From positions 47,566 to 111,565 of the forward strand of contig JAEOTA010000073.1 of NCBI GenBank assembly GCA_016840085.1: a stretch of DNA of 64,000 bases, in the 5' to 3' direction. Numbering within the stretch: position 1 is the first letter of the stretch; each line of letters opens with the position of its first letter. A model generated the notes under the pieces. It was not told the origin of the DNA. It saw only the letters and a program-made list of their open reading frames with translations, and ran no database searches. The position numbers and the translations under genes are program-made. The stretch comes from Promethearchaeota archaeon. Its GTDB lineage: Archaea; Asgardarchaeota; Lokiarchaeia; Sigyniarchaeales; SOKP01. Below, in pieces: positions 23,940 to 63,999 of the stretch.

Positions 23940-24824
23940 ATGTACTTTTGGGAGAGTGTAATGAAATTATATAATATTAGCGAAAAAGGAGAATTAAATG
24001 AATTAGATGAATTAGATTTTGAGGAAATCGATGTTTATCTTGTTGATGATGAGGAAAGAAATACAATATATATTTGGGTAGGACTTAAGGTACCTCAAGA
24101 TAAAAAGGATATCACAGCGGATATTGCAAGAAAAATAGATAAAGAACGTGGAGGATCAGCAAAAATACTAATTATGAAGCAAAAAAGAGAATATGGTTCA
24201 TTTTTAGCTATGATGCATGATCTCAGAAGAGGTCGAATTCCAGGTAAGACAATCGAGCGAAGACCAGAACTTGTTTTGAAGAAACCATCAGAACTTATTC
24301 AACCTTCTATCAAAAAAGAACCCGAAAAAGATAAAAAACTTGCTCACGCTTTTATCCCAATCGAATCCGTTAAAGAGTATAAAGCTCTAAGTGAAATAAA
24401 AATTACACCTGAGATGCGAATAGAAAAATGGTTAACACAACTCAAAAAATATAGAAGTTTTAAGCCAGAAAAAGCAATTGAAGAAGAAAGAGAACAAGAG
24501 GAACTAGAAAAATTAGTGAAACCAGAAGTACTGGAAGAACCCGAAGAATTGAAGGAGACTGACTTAAAAAATCAGGTTAAAGAAGCTGCTTATTATCTTT
24601 CTCAGAATGGATACACCTATGATGAACTTTGCTGGTTATTAGCAGAATTAATCCAGAAAACGAACCTTGAAATGCCTTCAATTGAAGATATAAGAGAAAA
24701 AGCAGAAGAAGTGTTTAATTCAGGTTGTAATTACGATGAGCTCTGTTGGCTCATCTCGGAGATGGACATACTAACTAGAGAAAGCTTACTTGAAGAAAAG
24801 AAGCGAAAGATGTTTCAATACTAG
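23940..24824 (+). CDS. single gelsolin-like domain protein with C-terminal duplicated YDxLCW module
   Basis: DVYLVDD..TIYIWVG...ARKID..RGG..KI...Q..E...F is a gelsolin-like core; C-terminus has two AYYL/AEEV..YDELCWL(L/I)(A/S)E repeats. Confidence 0.85.
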   Translation: MYFWESVMKLYNISEKGELNELDELDFEEIDVYLVDDEERNTIYIWVGLKVPQDKKDITADIARKIDKERGGSAKILIMKQKREYGSFLAMMHDLRRGRIPGKTIERRPELVLKKPSELIQPSIKKEPEKDKKLAHAFIPIESVKEYKALSEIKITPEMRIEKWLTQLKKYRSFKPEKAIEEEREQEELEKLVKPEVLEEPEELKETDLKNQVKEAAYYLSQNGYTYDELCWLLAELIQKTNLEMPSIEDIREKAEEVFNSGCNYDELCWLISEMDILTRESLLEEKKRKMFQY

Positions 24825-50314: not shown

Positions 50315-51214
50315 ATGAAAAATTTTAAAGATAAAGTAGCAGTCATCACTGGCGCTGCTAGTGGTATTGGTCTTGGAATTGCCAAGAGGGCTGTAAAAGA
50401 AGGCATGAAGGTTGTTATAGCCGATATAGATGAAGAAGCACTATTTTCAGCTGAAAAAGAATTAAAGGAATTAGGAGGCCGTGTAGTAGCAGTGCTTACT
50501 GATGTTTCTAAAGCAGAAGATATTGAAAATCTAGCAAAAAGAACTATTGATGCTTACGGAGAAGTGCATCTGTTATGCAATAATGCAGGAGTAGTAAGAG
50601 CAAGGCTTATTTGGGAATATTCGTTATCTGATTGGAAATGGATAATAGGAGTTAACTAATGGGGAGTTATTCATGGGATTAAAACTTTTATACCAATTAT
50701 GCTAAAGCAGGATAACGAGTGTCATATAGTCAATACAGCCTCTCTTGCAGGTTTAATAACTGCACCTTTAGAAGGAGCTTATAATGTCACGAAACATGGT
50801 GTAGTATCTCTTTCTGAGACGTTATCTACTGAATTGAAGGAAGTAAATTCAAAAATTAAAGTATCTGTGCTCTGTCCTGGATTTGTAAAAACAAATATTT
50901 TAGAGTGTGAAAAACATCGACCGGCAGAATTAAGTGAAGGTGAAATTGACTTTGAAAAGGCTACAGAGGAGTTCATAAAAGAACATCCTGAATATGAAGC
51001 ACATATTAATATGACTATGCAAATGTGGGAGGCGGGTCTTTCACCTGATAAAGCGGGTGATATTGTATTTGAAGCAATAAAGGATGAGGCACTTTATATT
51101 TTAACTGATACAGGTCTTTTTTTCAAGATTATGGCAAAGGATCGAATGAATGATATAATTGAGGCATTCAAGCAAAACAAACAGTATGCAAGAAAAACTC
51201 TAGAGGTTTATTAG
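50315..51214 (+). pseudogene. SDR oxidoreductase interrupted by a single in-frame TAA (or sequencing error)
   Basis: TGAASGIG and NNAG in the first ORF; NTAS and YNVTK in the second, same frame. The junction reads GVN*WGVIHG, where the family usually has GVNLWGVIHG (TTA>TAA at 50657-50659). Confidence 0.85.
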
Positions 51215-54192: not shown

Positions 54193-54283
54193 ATTTTTTC
54201 TTACCTAAACATTTCTTTTTAGTTTCTAGTTTGAGTAAATATTAATAAACTTTGTTGTTTCTACATAGCTCAAAAAAATCTCT

Positions 54284-55150
54284 TTATGGGTAAAAAGACT
54301 GACTAAGTTCATCATATCTGAAGCCTTTTAGAAACTTTGGGGCTTCTGTTATCCCCGTTCCTCTTATACATATATAATTTAGATTTCTTAAATTCTTTAA
54401 AGACTTGGGTAAATTAAAAACATCATTATGAGCTAAACTTAACTCTTTTAAAGAAGATAATTCCCCCATACCATCGGGTAGTGTGTGCAGGTTATTATAA
54501 TCTAAATAAAAATACTTAAGTGATTTTAATTTCGAAACTCCTTCCGGAATTTTTGTCAACTCGTTAAATTCTAAACTTAACGATTTTAAATGTGTGGCTT
54601 CAAATACTTCTTGCGGAATAGATTTTAAGCCCCATCCGTCTAAATTTATGTGTCTTATGTTGTGAAGTTTTCCATAATCACAATAATCTCGAAATTGGTT
54701 AATTCCAACTACTACTTTCGATTTTAAAAAATCCTGTCCAGAATATTTAAATATTGCTGTATGTAATGTCTGTCCTGCTTTATGCATTTGGATCTTTTCT
54801 CTAAAATCTTCAAGATATACTTTTCTCTTTAATGCAAAATCCTTATCTAACCAGTATCCTTCTTCATGTTTCCAGCTTGCAGCTTCCAAGATCTCTTCTC
54901 GAAGTTTCTCAGATAGTTTTCCACCCGTTAAAAGAGCAAAATAACCTATTACAAAATAGGGAGCCCTCCTAAAACTACGATTATGAACCATTTTCACGAG
55001 GGTGTCGTAGTTTTTCTCGAAGTTTTCCCTTGTAAGGTTCCTCTCGTGAAAAAAGAAATCATGAGATTCCAATCCACACGCATTCAGCATAAAAGATGCT
55101 ATATCAGCTTCCTCATCATCTTCTAATATTTCTACACCTGCTCTCGTCAT
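54284..55150 (-). CDS. leucine-rich repeat protein
   Basis: C-terminal LxxLxLxxNxLxxLP repeats (LKSLSLEFNELTKIP, LKYFYLDYNNLHTLP, LKELSLAHNDVFNLP). Confidence 0.9.
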   Translation of the reverse strand: MTRAGVEILEDDEEADIASFMLNACGLESHDFFFHERNLTRENFEKNYDTLVKMVHNRSFRRAPYFVIGYFALLTGGKLSEKLREEILEAASWKHEEGYWLDKDFALKRKVYLEDFREKIQMHKAGQTLHTAIFKYSGQDFLKSKVVVGINQFRDYCDYGKLHNIRHINLDGWGLKSIPQEVFEATHLKSLSLEFNELTKIPEGVSKLKSLKYFYLDYNNLHTLPDGMGELSSLKELSLAHNDVFNLPKSLKNLRNLNYICIRGTGITEAPKFLKGFRYDELSQSFYP

Positions 55151-55265
55151 TATTAATAATATGATAATCCTTTAATTTAAATTTCATGTCAAATAAAATG
55201 TTCTTAGTGCTCCAAGAGAAATCATAAAGAGGAATTTTGTTTTAAAAGATGTAGGTTCTTATTTC

Positions 55266-56408
55266 TTATTTAAAGTAAGAAATTAGGGTGTTTTTTATAC
55301 TCTCAAAATGCCCAAGATTAACTTTTAGAAGATCTTCAAATCCTTCTCTAATCCCAAGTCTTTCGATTCTTTCAGTGATTTTAAAATAAGGAGACTTTTT
55401 TAATTGTTTAATTAATGCTTTATTCTCCTTCACACCCTCAAGAAGATATTCAATTGAATTTATTTGATGTATACCTAGCATTTGCTGAATGATTGCCATT
55501 AACATTGTATCAAAAGTCACTCTTAAGATAACTTCATGATCAAATTCAGGTGATTTAGGAAATAGATAAGTTTTAAGAAGAGCAATTGACTCTTTAAAGC
55601 GACTAATGGAATCCATACCTAATTCCTTTATTTTATCATTAAAGTCACGGTTTTCAGAGGCTCGTAAACACAATGCTGAGAATGTTTGGTATTCTGCCAC
55701 AAAATGTATAACCCGAGCCCTTGCATTAAGCATCGTGTCTGTAGATTCCTCCTCATCGATAATATCTCTCAAATCTTCCAATGCTGACTTGAAATATGTT
55801 GCAATATCATTGAATTTTTTAGCTGCTGCCTCAAGTTCACCTGCTGATATTAAATACAAAGCACGTTTTTCTGCAGTTTCATATAGTTCATCAAATTTCT
55901 TAAGTTTCATTACTGCTTTAAGAATTAAACGTTTACCTAAATCTTTTTTTATTCGTGATCGTTCAAATGATTGTCCTGCTTTTAAAAGTAAGACTGAAGA
56001 AAGACTGTTATATTCTTCAGGATCAACTTCATGTAGATATTCTGAAGCTTTTTGCCAAGATTCTCCTGCAGTTTCCCAATCTCGCATTCTATATGAGACA
56101 TTTCCTAATTGTAATAATAATTTAGCTGAAACTTCGTATAATTTTAATTCCTCAGTTTTTCTGATAATAGATTTTAATCTATAGACTGCTTGAATATTAT
56201 TTTTAAACTGTGAGATTATTTGGGCAATTCTTATGTATAATTCGTCTAATTTGATATAACTCCCTAAATCAAGATAGATTTGGGCAGCCTTTTCGTAAAA
56301 ATTAATTGCTTCCTCGCCTTTGTTACGATCAGCTAAGTTCTCTGCTTTATCTATTAATTGTATTGCCTCGATTTCTTTATCTTCTTTATCATCCCAATTG
56401 TGGATCAT
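55266..56408 (-). CDS. TPR-like helical repeat protein, alpha-SNAP-like
   Basis: EAINFYEKAAQIY, DWETAGESWQKA, KAGQSF and GELEAAAKKFNDIA resemble SNAP/TPR helical hairpins. Confidence 0.65.
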   Translation of the reverse strand: MIHNWDDKEDKEIEAIQLIDKAENLADRNKGEEAINFYEKAAQIYLDLGSYIKLDELYIRIAQIISQFKNNIQAVYRLKSIIRKTEELKLYEVSAKLLLQLGNVSYRMRDWETAGESWQKASEYLHEVDPEEYNSLSSVLLLKAGQSFERSRIKKDLGKRLILKAVMKLKKFDELYETAEKRALYLISAGELEAAAKKFNDIATYFKSALEDLRDIIDEEESTDTMLNARARVIHFVAEYQTFSALCLRASENRDFNDKIKELGMDSISRFKESIALLKTYLFPKSPEFDHEVILRVTFDTMLMAIIQQMLGIHQINSIEYLLEGVKENKALIKQLKKSPYFKITERIERLGIREGFEDLLKVNLGHFESIKNTLISYFK

Positions 56409-56543
56409 AAAAATTCTCCATAAAATCAGACATTTAATAAATTAACTCTAATTTACAAAGACTCAATTAAGATATTAAAACCTTAGTATTGATTGGTTTT
56501 TCTTGTTATTTATTTGTTTTATTAATGAAATTTTCATATTATA

Positions 56544-57422
56544 TTACTCAAAGAGTTTAATTTTCCGACTTTTAATTATGTTTTTGAACTCAAATGATTG
56601 TTTTGCTGAAGCAAATGATTCTTTTGCGTCTTCAATCGCTCCATAAAAGATAAAATTAGATAACCATGATGCTATAAACATGATGCTTGCTCTCCTATAC
56701 CTAGTGTGAAATTTAGTATTTAAGCGTGGAGAGGAATATTGAAAAAGGAAAAGATTTGGTGCGGTACCTACTGGAAGTTCTAAAGACACACTAATTAATT
56801 TTTGAGTTTCCAATACATGTGCTAAGCTTTCTATATCAATGACGCCCCCATCAATCAAAATCTTTTTGATTCCTATACTCTTTAATCCTTCAAGAATATT
56901 TGAATTATCAGGTTGATTATTTTCTGTAAGATAAGCAAATCTTTGAGTGGATGTCATATTATTTGAGCCCAATATCAACACAACTATAGATTTTATTTTG
57001 TATTTTTGAAGTATTTGTATTTCTTTTTTGTTTTTTAGATTTGAAATAGTATTATATATATATTGGTCAGGTTTAATACTAAGTTCTGCGAGATATTTAA
57101 TTCCAGCAACTCTGGATTCAAAATTTCCTCCTAACACAAATGGTGGCTCATAATTATCTAAATAAAACTCTAGGTATTTAATCATAGCTTTTGGAGTTAT
57201 TGCTGATATTTCAATTAGGTGAGGGATATTATATTTCTCAGATAATGAGATTTGGGTATCAATCCTTTTTTTAGCTTTCTGAATATTAAAAATTTCACTA
57301 TTTTTTCTATCTACAATAGTCTCGTTTTGATAAAAAATTGTTCCAATTAGCACTGGGGGTAATTCAAAACTTCCTCTGCCTAATTTTATATTACCATAAG
57401 AATAAAATTTAGAGTTATTCAT
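56544..57422 (-). CDS. MtrH-family (tetrahydromethanopterin methyltransferase subunit H-like) protein, divergent
   Basis: PPVLIGTIFY...IVD...F...KA, IYNTI, LPVG, FYGAIE. Confidence 0.75.
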   Translation of the reverse strand: MNNSKFYSYGNIKLGRGSFELPPVLIGTIFYQNETIVDRKNSEIFNIQKAKKRIDTQISLSEKYNIPHLIEISAITPKAMIKYLEFYLDNYEPPFVLGGNFESRVAGIKYLAELSIKPDQYIYNTISNLKNKKEIQILQKYKIKSIVVLILGSNNMTSTQRFAYLTENNQPDNSNILEGLKSIGIKKILIDGGVIDIESLAHVLETQKLISVSLELPVGTAPNLFLFQYSSPRLNTKFHTRYRRASIMFIASWLSNFIFYGAIEDAKESFASAKQSFEFKNIIKSRKIKLFE

Positions 57423-57507
57423 ATTAGATCAATTATTAGATACGATAATTAAAATAGAAATGACTAACTATTTAATCTGCTAGATTTTTTAATGGTTAGG
57501 TATTTTT

Positions 57508-57765
57508 CTAAATTTTTCCTATCTTCATTAATATGTCTAGCTCTGCGATTAACCAACAGAGAATATCGTAAGGCGCGGAAGAAAAGTAGATTTGAGCTGC
57601 TTTTTCCTTTATTCTATCTTCTTGGTTATGTTTTGGATCTCTCTGTGCAATTAATTGTCTTTTTGCAAGCATCCAGCATAATTTATCATAAGTGTAATTC
57701 TTCTGTGAGATGTAATAAGCTGCAATATTTACTTGATTCCGCATTGCATTTTCAGTACCATTCAT
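57508..57765 (-). CDS. small protein consisting of a duplicated YDxLCW module (DUF2934-like)
   Basis: NQVNIAAYYISQKNYTYDKLCWMLAK...IKEKAAQIY...YDILCWLIAELDIL is clearly homologous to the C-terminus of 23940..24824. Confidence 0.85.
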   Translation of the reverse strand: MNGTENAMRNQVNIAAYYISQKNYTYDKLCWMLAKRQLIAQRDPKHNQEDRIKEKAAQIYFSSAPYDILCWLIAELDILMKIGKI

Positions 57766-57795
57766 AATTTTGTAGAATATTATTTTTTGTGATTT

Positions 57796-59001
57796 TTAAT
57801 AAAGATGGAGCTTTACATCGCAATTTCTACAACTCCCATCCTTTAATTTTTTAAAACAATCCTCATGATAAAGAGTATTACATTCCAAATTACCACATTG
57901 AACTGCTCTCTGTCCTTTTTCAAAAATAAAATGACATACTGGACATACATTAAATAAAGCATCTTCTCCGAGAATCCCAACATCTTCGATGAATTTTGCG
58001 GGAATAACTTCTGGTCTTTTAGCTGGCTTCTCCTTTGGACCTCCAGTAAGAATACGCAATTTTTGGATTTGAGATACTTCCATAGGAATTTTCACTAAAT
58101 AAAAACAATGTGGACATCTTGCGGTTCCAGATCTCTTTGCTATGTGATCCTTTTGAGAGTCTGCCCATGCAGCTAAACAATGTATATGAAAGGGAGTGGT
58201 ACAGTTAGGACAATACCTACCTGTCAAATAAAAAGAACCTTTAGTATAGGGGTTTTTATCAGAAAAACAGATTGAACACTTTTTATAATCAACCTCTCCT
58301 CTTATTTGTTTAGCCCTTTGTTCTTGGTCTTTAGTTAAATCTTGAACTCTTAATAAATCTGCTGCAATTTTTCTAAGAAAAGCTGGATTTTCAGTGATTG
58401 CCTTAGTATTTGCTCCATATGTTTTATAATTATCATCGGCAATTTCTTGGGCAGATCTTATTAAACTTTCAGGATCATTGTTATAAAAAAATCTGCCGTT
58501 AGTTAAATCACTTAATCTTTTTAAAATGTTTTGCTGACCTAATTCTCCTAGTAGAAACGTATCAATTTTAATATTCAAGCCTTGAGCAAGGCGAGCCATT
58601 TTTAGAGGATCTACAGCGGTGTTCATAGTTTTCCCATCAGAGATTAAAAGAATTCTAGGAGACTTCGCACCAACCTTCCGCAATTCCGCTATAAGAGTTT
58701 TTATTGATAATGCCAACCCGTCACCAATAGCCGAATACCCCCCACAAGTTAAAGAATCTAAAGCGGAATCTATATGCCCTATAAAACTGGAACTTGTAAA
58801 ATCAATTATTTTTTCTGCTGTATCAGAAAATTTCATTATAGCAAATGCACTTAAACTATCTTTATCAAATCTCTCTTTTATAAGAGTTTTAATGGCTTTT
58901 ACACAACTAGTCAATCGGTTCGGAGGGTAGTCTTTTCTAAACATCGATCTTGACGAGTCTATACAAACAACAATATTTTCTGGTATTCTTTGCTCAGCCA
59001 T
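57796..59001 (-). CDS. vWA domain protein (Ssl1/p44- or Rpn10-like) with two C-terminal RING-like zinc fingers
   Basis: MIDAS-type DSSRSM..KDYPPNRL and LISDG; CSIC..CPNC..FHIHC..W..CPHC; CPVC..C....C..YHEDC..CRNC. Confidence 0.85.
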   Translation of the reverse strand: MAEQRIPENIVVCIDSSRSMFRKDYPPNRLTSCVKAIKTLIKERFDKDSLSAFAIMKFSDTAEKIIDFTSSSFIGHIDSALDSLTCGGYSAIGDGLALSIKTLIAELRKVGAKSPRILLISDGKTMNTAVDPLKMARLAQGLNIKIDTFLLGELGQQNILKRLSDLTNGRFFYNNDPESLIRSAQEIADDNYKTYGANTKAITENPAFLRKIAADLLRVQDLTKDQEQRAKQIRGEVDYKKCSICFSDKNPYTKGSFYLTGRYCPNCTTPFHIHCLAAWADSQKDHIAKRSGTARCPHCFYLVKIPMEVSQIQKLRILTGGPKEKPAKRPEVIPAKFIEDVGILGEDALFNVCPVCHFIFEKGQRAVQCGNLECNTLYHEDCFKKLKDGSCRNCDVKLHLY

Positions 59002-59226
59002 TTTATGTTAAAGACTTTTGGGAACACTTTTAAAGAATAAGCTATAGAGTTTCGCAAATTACTCTATTTATTATTCTTTTCTTAATAATTAAATAATAGT
59101 TTAATCATTTAATTATTTAGATTAATGAAAAAATAAAGTTTTATTTTCTAAATAACATATATTTAATAATACTTTATTTATCTATTAAAATAGAGTTAAG
59201 ATAATTGTTTATAAATCTGATGCCAT

Positions 59227-60435
59227 ATGTTACAAGAAAATGATAAAAGTGTTGTTTTAAAAGATTTCTTTAAAAGTAACGTTTTAATCAATGAAGTAGA
59301 AGAAATACTACGATTCAAACCAGAAACTTTGATAGGAGTCGATAAAATTAGTTCTGATCATTTAATTGCTCATGGTATTAAAACAATAGAAGATTTAGCT
59401 AACTTAACAGTAACAAATCTCCCAGAAATAAAAGAAATATTACCCAATATACTTCAAAAATGGGTGAAAATTGCACAAATCATACAAAAAAATGTAAGAG
59501 AGCAGTTAAAGCGACATAAAAAAATTTTAATGGTTGGTCTAGATAATGGTGGCAAGACTTCAATCTTAGCTGTAGTTCAAGATAAATTTTCGATTATAAA
59601 ATCATTATTGCCAACAAGAGGCGTCAAGAGAGAAAAATTAGATTTCTTCGGTTATCCAATCATAAGCTGGGATTTAGGCGGGCAAATTATGTATCGCGAG
59701 AAGCTATATTTCAATAGACCAGAGTTATTTTTCACAGAAGCAGATATTATGTTGTATGTTGTCGATATACAAGATCCAGATAGATTTCCTGAAGCTGCAA
59801 ACTATTTTCGCGAAGTATTAAAAGCCTTTACAGAATTAGGAGAAAACCCAGAGTTATTAATAGTTTTGAGTAAAAGTGATCAAGATTTTAGAAAAACACT
59901 TCAATGGCAGCAGAATGTAACTACTATTAAAAATAAATTTACTAAAATTGTTGATGAATTCGAGCAATTTATAATTGATTTTTGTGACACAACAGTATTT
60001 CAAAAAGAGACCGTTATGCAAATGTTCAGTGTAGCGCTCACAAAGGTTTCTGATACTTCAGAGATTATTGAAAATATATTAGAAGATTTTATCAACCAAG
60101 TCGATGCAAAAGCAGCAAGTTTGGTATCAATGGATGGATTGATTTTTGGAAATTATACCAGAACTGATACAGATGAAATGTTAGTCAATAATACAGCATT
60201 ACTTTTGCAAACTCTTTCCAATTTCTATAATTCTATTGGATTAATAAGAGAAAGAACAATAAAACTTGATTTACCACTTAATGGATTTACTATTCGTGGT
60301 GAAAAATTATTTGAATATTCAGATCTCCAGATTCCTGTATATTTATGGGCGCTTGCTGAAGAACCTAAAAAATTAGAAGGTAAATTGGATTATTTCAAAG
60401 AACAATTATTACCTTTGATTAATCTGTTTCTTTAA
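59227..60435 (+). CDS. Arf-like small GTPase with N-terminal HhH-like and C-terminal roadblock/longin-like domains
   Basis: LIGVDKISSDHLIAHGIKTIEDLA (HhH-like); GLDNGGKT, PTRG, WDLGGQ, SKSD; C-terminal ASLVSMDGLIFG. Confidence 0.88.
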   Translation: MLQENDKSVVLKDFFKSNVLINEVEEILRFKPETLIGVDKISSDHLIAHGIKTIEDLANLTVTNLPEIKEILPNILQKWVKIAQIIQKNVREQLKRHKKILMVGLDNGGKTSILAVVQDKFSIIKSLLPTRGVKREKLDFFGYPIISWDLGGQIMYREKLYFNRPELFFTEADIMLYVVDIQDPDRFPEAANYFREVLKAFTELGENPELLIVLSKSDQDFRKTLQWQQNVTTIKNKFTKIVDEFEQFIIDFCDTTVFQKETVMQMFSVALTKVSDTSEIIENILEDFINQVDAKAASLVSMDGLIFGNYTRTDTDEMLVNNTALLLQTLSNFYNSIGLIRERTIKLDLPLNGFTIRGEKLFEYSDLQIPVYLWALAEEPKKLEGKLDYFKEQLLPLINLFL

Positions 60436-60523: not shown

Positions 60524-60736
60524 CTATTCCAATTCTTTATGAGCATTAAGTAAATATTCATTACACTTATCTAACATTTCAATTGCATTGGTTAATTTTT
60601 CGGCTACTAAATCCAATCCTTTATCTCTAGCAATATCTCTCCATTTCAAAAAACTTTCTTTATGCGAATCATTATGGTCTGCCCAATGTCTACATAATTT
60701 TGATAATTTTAAAACATCCTTATCTTGTTTATCCAA
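60524..60736 (-). CDS. small His-containing helical protein (putative metal/Ni-binding CODH accessory)
   Basis: HWADHNDSH motif; downstream of cdhA on the same strand. Confidence 0.7.
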   Translation of the reverse strand: MDKQDKDVLKLSKLCRHWADHNDSHKESFLKWRDIARDKGLDLVAEKLTNAIEMLDKCNEYLLNAHKELE

Positions 60737-63582: not shown

Positions 63583-63999
63583 TTAAAGTGTAGAGAGAAA
63601 TTCAGAAACAGTTTCTTCGGCATCTTCATCAACTAAGCTATCTTCTAACTCTTCACCGATAAAGTTAAATCTATATACACATTTTTGACCACCAAGTAAG
63701 ACACATTCAATTTCCTCACCGTCAACATCCATGTTTAATATTTCAAATGTACCATTAAATAATCCCTGATAAAGTAAACATAAGTTTTTTGCCATTATAT
63801 TTCCACGTTCATCGCTTGCAAGTGAGTCTTCTACTTCAATTATCATATAATTTTTTTTAAAAACTGCCCTTAAATGCCCAAATCCCATAAGCTCCATAGC
63901 TTCAAGCACACCTAAAAGAACTTCTTTTCTTGTAGCCATATTTTCAGAGCTCCAATCTTTATTATAAAAGAATTTTTCCATAAACGACCGTCCTAATGA
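63583..63999 (-). CDS. V4R-domain protein (partial; frame stays open to the window end)
   Basis: MGFG, CLLYQGLFNGTF, EIECVLLGGQKCVY; upstream codons SLGRSF are in frame with no stop. Confidence 0.8.
   Translation of the reverse strand, partial: SLGRSFMEKFFYNKDWSSENMATRKEVLLGVLEAMELMGFGHLRAVFKKNYMIIEVEDSLASDERGNIMAKNLCLLYQGLFNGTFEILNMDVDGEEIECVLLGGQKCVYRFNFIGEELEDSLVDEDAEETVSEFLSTL

Follow-up and report, generated by a model that had tools for sequence, protein, structure and literature searches.

The closest described relatives of the genes treated here belong to several separate systems. Prokaryotic ubiquitin operons with a Prok-RING E3 have the arrangement E1-E2-RING-JAB-Ubl, where Ubl denotes a ubiquitin-like protein, in the account that PMC7159879 cites from Burroughs et al. 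2011. The cultured Promethearchaeum MK-D1 possesses Rag-like GTPase-roadblock fusions, often annotated as Arf, and its GTPase genes generally lie outside the operons of their regulators (Tran et al. 2024, PMC10933270). Asgard gelsolin-domain X fusions carry an extension hypothesised to bind the sides of filaments (Akil et al. 2020, PMC7444086), and Asgard proteomes are rich in solenoids, their leucine-rich repeat (LRR) proteins being mostly of unknown function (bioRxiv 10.64898/2026.10.28.762692). A substrate or regulator has been assigned to only a few Asgard E3 ligases. The present work concerns positions 54,284 to 60,435 of a 64,000-nucleotide stretch of DNA (the window, meaning the whole stretch analysed) from a Promethearchaeota archaeon, contig JAEOTA010000073.1; the host genome belongs to the Lokiarchaeia (Promethearchaeia), and the relatives of the window are Promethearchaeota/Lokiarchaeia records. 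Six genes occupy the region, in which an earlier note saw a possible conserved system joining a GTPase switch, ubiquitination, membrane traffic and actin. The region is probably, and with some reservation, a slowly rearranging Lokiarchaeia neighbourhood with one noteworthy gene, encoding a class-wide candidate E3 of vWA-RING-RING architecture, and not a multi-gene machine.

The vWA-RING-RING protein consists of a vWA domain at residues 9-190, with an intact metal-ion-dependent adhesion site (MIDAS), followed by two C4HC3 fingers: RING1 (242-299), which is RINGv-like, and RING2 (353-394). The structure model (pLDDT, the predicted local confidence score, 81) places the central helix of RING1 at 273-282. 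The zinc ligands of RING1 (C242, C245, C264, C267, H272, C275, C296 and C299) are invariant across 31 diverse ortholog and paralog rows; their spacing is that of a cross-brace RING, and the finger matches Pfam zf-RING_2 at E 1e-4. Positions equivalent to Ile244 and Trp279 touch the E2 in RING ligases. Among the same rows, the putative hydrophobic E2-contact residues are kept in 31/31 (I244, after the first Cys), 29/31 (W279, in the helix) and 25/31 (P297, in the last loop) cases, and RING2 is without the Trp found in RING1. The second finger of the family profile weakly matches the E3s Arkadia, RNF165 and RNF13 (E about 0.002), and the MIDAS residues D15, S17, S19 and D122 are invariant in 24 ortholog rows. 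On these residues and on the gene contexts given below, the protein is most likely a RING-type ubiquitin E3.

The family was found in all 49 sampled genomes of the host family (f1) and of a second family (f2, which includes MK-D1), usually with one paralog, and it occurs also in families f28 and f31; a search of 151 genomes from other Asgard lineages returned none. A literature search returned no paper on it, the searched library leaving most subscription journals outside. In the ESM Atlas, a fold search returned the protein's own family first and then p44 and BatA, level at a template-modelling (TM) score of about 0.45, and a feature search with the zinc-finger half gave no usable match. A full-length paralog in the host adjoins metG, an arrangement kept in f1 and f2; C68:19535-20716, C59:11985-13100 and C49:132376-135160 hold between them this metG-side copy plus three degenerate vWA-zinc paralogs.

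Several neighbourhoods place this family beside ubiquitin and proteasome genes. An ortholog from another order (genome G205, locus L143, at G205:C6:262000-281999) lies directly downstream of E2-like, E1, JAB and E1 genes. The proteasome alpha gene is found inside the locus in all six f2 loci that are long enough, including that of MK-D1, where the order is TPR (QEE15104), proteasome alpha (QEE15105), vWA-RING-RING (QEE15106) and GTPase (QEE15107). A homolog, P0334, aligns to the vWA-RING-RING protein over the vWA domain and RING1 (HHalign 99.7%) and is the last gene of a ThiF-YukD-RING-YukD-E2-JAB operon (ThiF-Ubl-RING-Ubl-E2-JAB). For the ubiquitin part of the earlier note, the vWA-RING-RING gene has independent context of this kind, in the G205 ortholog, the f2 alpha gene and P0334. 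The family resembles the prokaryotic ubiquitin operons in that its RING fingers match Prok-RING_1, at a sub-threshold level, in that one Lokiarchaeia ortholog stands among E1, E2 and JAB genes, and in that a vWA plus Prok-RING homolog sits in such an operon. It differs from them in having two fingers instead of one, class-wide conservation and a stable paralog, and the host-family gene is set apart from ubiquitin genes and paired with a GTPase gene. Biochemical work would find a good target in this class-wide family, whose vWA domain is of the Rpn10/p44 type and whose neighbours repeatedly come from the ubiquitin-proteasome system; the MK-D1 orthologs are identified. As side observations, the ubiquitin cluster at L143 holds a homolog of the gene that adjoins the host's proteasome alpha gene, and on the P0334 contig the complete prokaryotic ubiquitin operon adjoins a WYL regulator and type I-B CRISPR cas genes.

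The host genome encodes ubiquitin, E1, E2 and JAB proteins, and an E2 is present in 61/61 genomes of the family. The host E2 and E1 genes contain short inserts with stops. The E2 insert is 30-32 nt long, forms a canonical bulge-helix-bulge and occupies the same site in five genomes (host C78:52861-52890, 30 nt; L194-L197); its removal restores the conserved frame in these five genomes, and the motif was found in 0/15 uninterrupted controls. In the E1 gene next to the E2 gene, the ATP-binding loop is interrupted by a hairpin insert containing a stop. Since the E2 insert is a candidate bulge-helix-bulge intron whose removal restores the frame, the ubiquitin cascade is probably intact. With such a cascade, RING1 would recruit a ubiquitin-loaded E2 through the conserved Ile244 and Trp279, and the vWA domain, with its intact metal-binding MIDAS, may capture a substrate or partner by one of its acidic residues. 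RING2 may be structural or serve as a second docking finger. Tagged proteins would then pass to the archaeal proteasome, by means of E1, E2 and ubiquitin encoded elsewhere in the host genome.

Open reading frames and Pfam domains confirm the six genes of the region, five on one strand and a GTPase gene divergent from them:

54284-55150, minus strand: LRR gene, 288 amino acids (aa), with an N-terminal domain and LRR (Pfam LRR_8, 7e-25)
55266-56408, minus strand: tetratricopeptide repeat (TPR)/alpha-solenoid gene, 380 aa, single-copy
56544-57422, minus strand: MtrH-family methyltransferase-like gene, 292 aa (Pfam MtrH, 3e-36)
57508-57765, minus strand: YDxLCW mini-protein gene, 85 aa, stand-alone, with two repeats
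57796-59001, minus strand: vWA-RING-RING gene, 401 aa (Pfam VWA_2, 2e-14, plus two C4HC3 fingers); locus core
59002-59226, no strand: divergent spacer, 225 bp, AT-rich (42-384 bp in relatives)
59227-60435, plus strand: gene for a helix-hairpin-helix (HhH) domain, a Rag-like small GTPase and a roadblock-like C-terminal domain, 402 aa; locus core

From the vWA-RING-RING gene towards the LRR gene, the gaps on the minus strand are 30, 85, 135 and 115 bp. Conservation was tallied among the neighbours in 68 loci around a vWA-RING-RING or GTPase ortholog, a few genomes being included twice. The full LRR gene was found in 0/68 related loci; in the closest relative, at 94% DNA identity, the LRR sequence is limited to an inverted fragment of 400 bp, and the host carries a 76% identical paralog on contig C32 and two further members of the family. 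The LRR gene is a recent insertion into a variable slot. This slot, 54193-55265, lies between a B12 radical SAM gene and the TPR gene, and in relatives it holds a 349-aa radical SAM gene or a membrane protease-like gene. The MtrH gene is a neighbour throughout the host family except in genus g3, and is absent from the f2 loci. A second MtrH paralog of the host (C24:149093-151497) abuts a 501-aa small GTPase gene, tail to tail, with a 4-bp overlap. The YDxLCW gene occurs in 35 loci, 16 of which have it in inverted orientation; their vWA identity is at least 68% throughout, and those with a genus label are of the host genus. Other genera have stand-alone copies on other contigs. It is a genus-specific insertion in either orientation. 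The LRR, YDxLCW and MtrH genes are passengers of the locus, and so, probably, is the TPR gene.

The YDxLCW protein is weakly DUF2934-like (E 0.04, in 4/11 members); it gave no PDB match, and no longer homologs were returned, the latter being weak evidence. The earlier note was right that the module is shared with gelsolin genes: the double repeat also forms the C-terminus of two gelsolin-domain genes of the host, one in the window (23940-24824, plus strand) and one on contig C69. The best PDB match of the former is Lokiarchaeota 2DGel (7WHG, E 1e-12), and MK-D1 is the one place outside the host family where the module was found. These fusions resemble the Asgard 1DGelX gelsolins (PMC7444086), in which the gelsolin domain precedes an uncharacterised helical module at the C-terminus, whereas the YDxLCW gene of the present locus stands alone. 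Because its position is genus-specific and its orientation varies, this gene provides no link between actin and the ligase.

The GTPase matches Pfam Gtr1_RagA (8e-20, residues 99-307) and Arf (4e-19), and keeps the motifs G1 (GLDNGGKT), G2 (Thr130), G3 (DLGGQ) and G4 (SKSD, that is SKxD). Its best PDB matches are the longer GTP-binding proteins 8YL2 (E 7e-36) and 8ZLA (3e-28), which stand far above Arf proteins and align to about residue 330. Proteins of the Arf family carry an N-terminal amphipathic helix directly ahead of the G domain. The present GTPase is without an Arf N-terminus, because its first 95 residues are a NusA/RAD51-type HhH domain (E 6e-8). No profile match of the C-terminal domain names roadblock; from the architecture and the secondary-structure pattern, we infer that it is one. 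Thus, in the "Arf-like GTPase-roadblock" of the earlier note, the GTPase with a roadblock-like end is retained, and Arf gives way to a Rag-like assignment with an HhH N-terminus. The protein is like the Asgard Rag-like GTPase-roadblock fusions (PMC10933270; 8YL2, 8ZLA) in its order of GTPase and roadblock-like domain and in its large family, the host genome having about ten GTPase paralogs; it is unlike them in its added N-terminal HhH domain, found also in related Lokiarchaeia GTPases, and in its G4 motif, SKxD. It is one of many Asgard Rag-like switches and shares a divergent spacer with the vWA-RING-RING gene by old gene order; the two may or may not work together.

A functional link between the GTPase and the E3 is nevertheless possible. 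In its fuller form, the vWA-RING-RING E3 and the Rag-like GTPase would be a co-regulated pair served by a bidirectional promoter, the GTPase switching the ligase or being its substrate, which we consider rather unlikely. The two genes stand head to head within 1.6 kb in 59 of the 62 loci that hold both, across two families whose members share 30-42% identity, so that synteny beyond close relatives, the test named in the earlier note, holds for this pair and fails for the full gene set. Genus g3 keeps the pair although its TPR and MtrH genes are gone, and in the rearranged genus g10 the two genes are still within about 3 kb. The three exceptions to the head-to-head order are L079, where a 692-aa gene is inserted between them, and L084 and L113 of g10, where the orientation is altered. 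Further from the host the pair is not kept together: in f28 (G248) the vWA, GTPase and TPR genes occupy three contigs, and in f31 (G204) the vWA gene and a full-length GTPase gene are likewise on different contigs; around the vWA and GTPase genes, both genomes have kilobases of other genes. The divergent spacers (n=52) have no motif in common other than AT-rich words; a bacterial promoter and terminator scan of the region stayed at chance level, with models ill-suited to archaea. The vWA paralog adjoins metG and not a GTPase gene, and the general separation of MK-D1 GTPase genes from the operons of their regulators also speaks against the pair.

The background of gene order bears on the same question. 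Neighbours at most 6 kb apart in 19 windows of Ca. Harpocratesius repetitus and 13 of P. syntrophicum MK-D1 were counted as retained if at most 8 kb apart in the host. Retention was 25/82 and 26/122 for pairs, and 4/54 and 24/135 for triples, respectively, in a sample that is small and clustered, raised by a few paralog pairs and lowered by assembly breaks. Hence 21-30% of random neighbour pairs are retained over the same distance as the vWA/GTPase pair, and 2-hydroxyacid dehydrogenase and RHH genes likewise remain near it across the split between f1 and f2. The pair is compatible with a common function without needing one, because neighbours often stay together across such a distance. Roughly one neighbour pair in four survives from family to family whatever its function, which calls for caution. 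It seems doubtful, on this evidence, that Lokiarchaeia possess an undescribed GTPase-gated ubiquitin ligase, in which control runs from the HhH-Rag-like GTPase to the vWA-RING-RING protein or the other way, and the TPR protein is an optional proteasome adaptor. If real, such a ligase would set a precedent in archaea, made of two or three genes, for the coupling of a Rag-type GTPase to a RING ligase.

The reading preferred here, of one E3 candidate in a slowly rearranging neighbourhood, has points against it. The vWA-RING-RING gene has no ubiquitin gene beside it in the host family, and a second f31 ortholog (G204, L142) has no ubiquitin genes nearby. In RING1, the usual Arg after the last Cys is replaced by Phe, Tyr or Leu, and C4HC3 fingers are also present in PHD-type binders. 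The head-to-head order in 59/62 loci leaves room for a functional tie, and the background control is small and is lowered by the fragmented host assembly.

The vWA domain lies within a broad BatA/Rpn10/p44 subgroup, and its likeness to p44 and to Rpn10 is limited to that domain. Archaeal orthology to TFIIH p44/Ssl1 (GTF2H2), with a role beside XPD in DNA repair, is very unlikely for the vWA-RING-RING protein. In favour of it, both proteins belong to the same vWA subgroup, are about 400 aa long and share a layout of vWA domain, zinc module and RING, that is, a vWA domain followed by two zinc modules. Moreover, p44 is the top single-sequence PDB match (E 1.4e-8) and Pfam Ssl1 matches at E 2e-9; in Foldseek the first 22 rows are all TFIIH entries aligned end to end (best E 5e-18), and in VIA-align Ssl1 comes first (Z 24.9, root-mean-square deviation (rmsd) 2.0, 183 aligned). 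Yet the end-to-end fit to p44 has an rmsd of 18-21 A, and the Z of 24.9 is tied with that of a generic bacterial vWA protein (24.0). A 31-sequence profile scores p44 at 61 bits, against 83 for Rpn10 and 94-105 for prokaryotic BatA-like or stand-alone vWA proteins, the latter being the next non-family matches in a search of 1.84 billion representatives. The p44 profile match is confined to the vWA domain (positions 9-180), with no C1_4 hit at E 0.1. The vWA-RING-RING protein also differs from p44 in its intact MIDAS, in C4HC3 RINGs without a profile match to p44 and in its confinement to Lokiarchaeia, the 151 genomes of other Asgard lineages having yielded no member; and no XPD gene was seen among the loci annotated.

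The TPR protein was called alpha-SNAP-like in the earlier note, which overstates a sub-threshold Pfam SNAP match (24.7 bits against a cut-off of 25) covering residues 20-100, some 80 residues, only. Its model (pLDDT 86) is an all-helical solenoid, and no SNAP appears among its PDB sequence matches. Foldseek returns LGN/Pins first and alpha-SNAP at rank 21 (TM 0.31). In VIA-align the Z values are 13.2 for a 19S chain, 13.0 for LGN, 12.5 for CSN1, 11.3 for gamma-SNAP (rmsd 8.7, 251 aligned) and 11.2 for Sec17 (rmsd 6.7, 221 aligned), values generic for helical repeats. Thus the protein shares with alpha/gamma-SNAP (Sec17) a TPR-like helical solenoid and the weak N-terminal match, and differs in its length (380 aa against about 290) and in that the solenoids of LGN, 19S and CSN1 fit it equally well or better. 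The gene is linked to the locus in f1 and f2, and a profile found a distant ortholog in f28 (G248, 2e-48); the profile gave no match in five g3 genomes, four of them at least 90% complete, nor did the f29-f31 genomes searched yield the gene. We read the TPR protein as a single-copy adaptor, conserved and with a generic solenoid, and not specifically as an alpha-SNAP.

A further proposal would make the TPR solenoid, the Rpn10-like vWA protein and the proteasome alpha subunit pieces of a primitive, lid-like regulatory module of the proteasome; this we regard as highly improbable. Rpn10 is the best PDB profile match of the vWA domain (E 3e-22), and the alpha gene of the f2 locus adds to the likeness to Rpn10/S5a, yet where Rpn10/S5a has ubiquitin-interacting motifs, the vWA-RING-RING protein has RING fingers. 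For the TPR protein there is a weak RPN7 match (E 4e-4), and a 19S chain and CSN1 hold ranks 1 and 5 in VIA-align; Z values near 13 with an rmsd of 7-10 A are, however, generic for helical repeats, LGN ties with them, and the all-helical model has no winged-helix PCI end. The alpha gene adjoins the TPR gene in five of the six f2 loci and is near it in all six, but it is located elsewhere in f1, and the absence of TPR matches from g3 and from the f29-f31 genomes searched also counts against such a module.

It is extremely improbable that the five or six genes work as one system connecting a GTPase switch with ubiquitination, membrane traffic of the SNAP type and actin. A same-strand run with gaps of 30-135 bp and the fusion of YDxLCW to gelsolin domains elsewhere in the genome speak for it, but among the 68 loci the full LRR gene is unique to the host genome, the YDxLCW gene is specific to the genus and in many loci inverted, MtrH is missing from g3 and the f2 loci, and the TPR protein is not specifically a SNAP. 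The conserved system of the earlier note therefore does not survive the comparison of gene order, the LRR, YDxLCW, MtrH and TPR genes being lost at the strain, genus or family level, and the locus offers no supporting evidence for a link to membrane traffic or actin. Eukaryote-like genes abound in these genomes, to the point that they form clusters by chance.

Some minor features of the surroundings may be recorded. At 50315-51214 (plus strand) of the window, a short-chain dehydrogenase is present as two open reading frames (114 and 171 aa), with an apparent frameshift or stop. A gene at 60524-60736 (minus strand) encodes a 70-aa protein with an HWxxHNxxH motif and no Pfam family, and it is kept just downstream of the GTPase gene in most of the host family. 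At 63583-63999 (minus strand) lies a V4R/Bet3-like gene truncated by the contig end. In relatives (L031-L090), this gene is the last of a co-oriented trio kept across the host family, whose other two members encode a W-repeat zinc-ribbon protein of 460-480 aa and a second GTPase, 330-350 aa long, whose G domain is C-terminal. This zinc-ribbon/GTPase/V4R trio is a better candidate for a trafficking-type unit.

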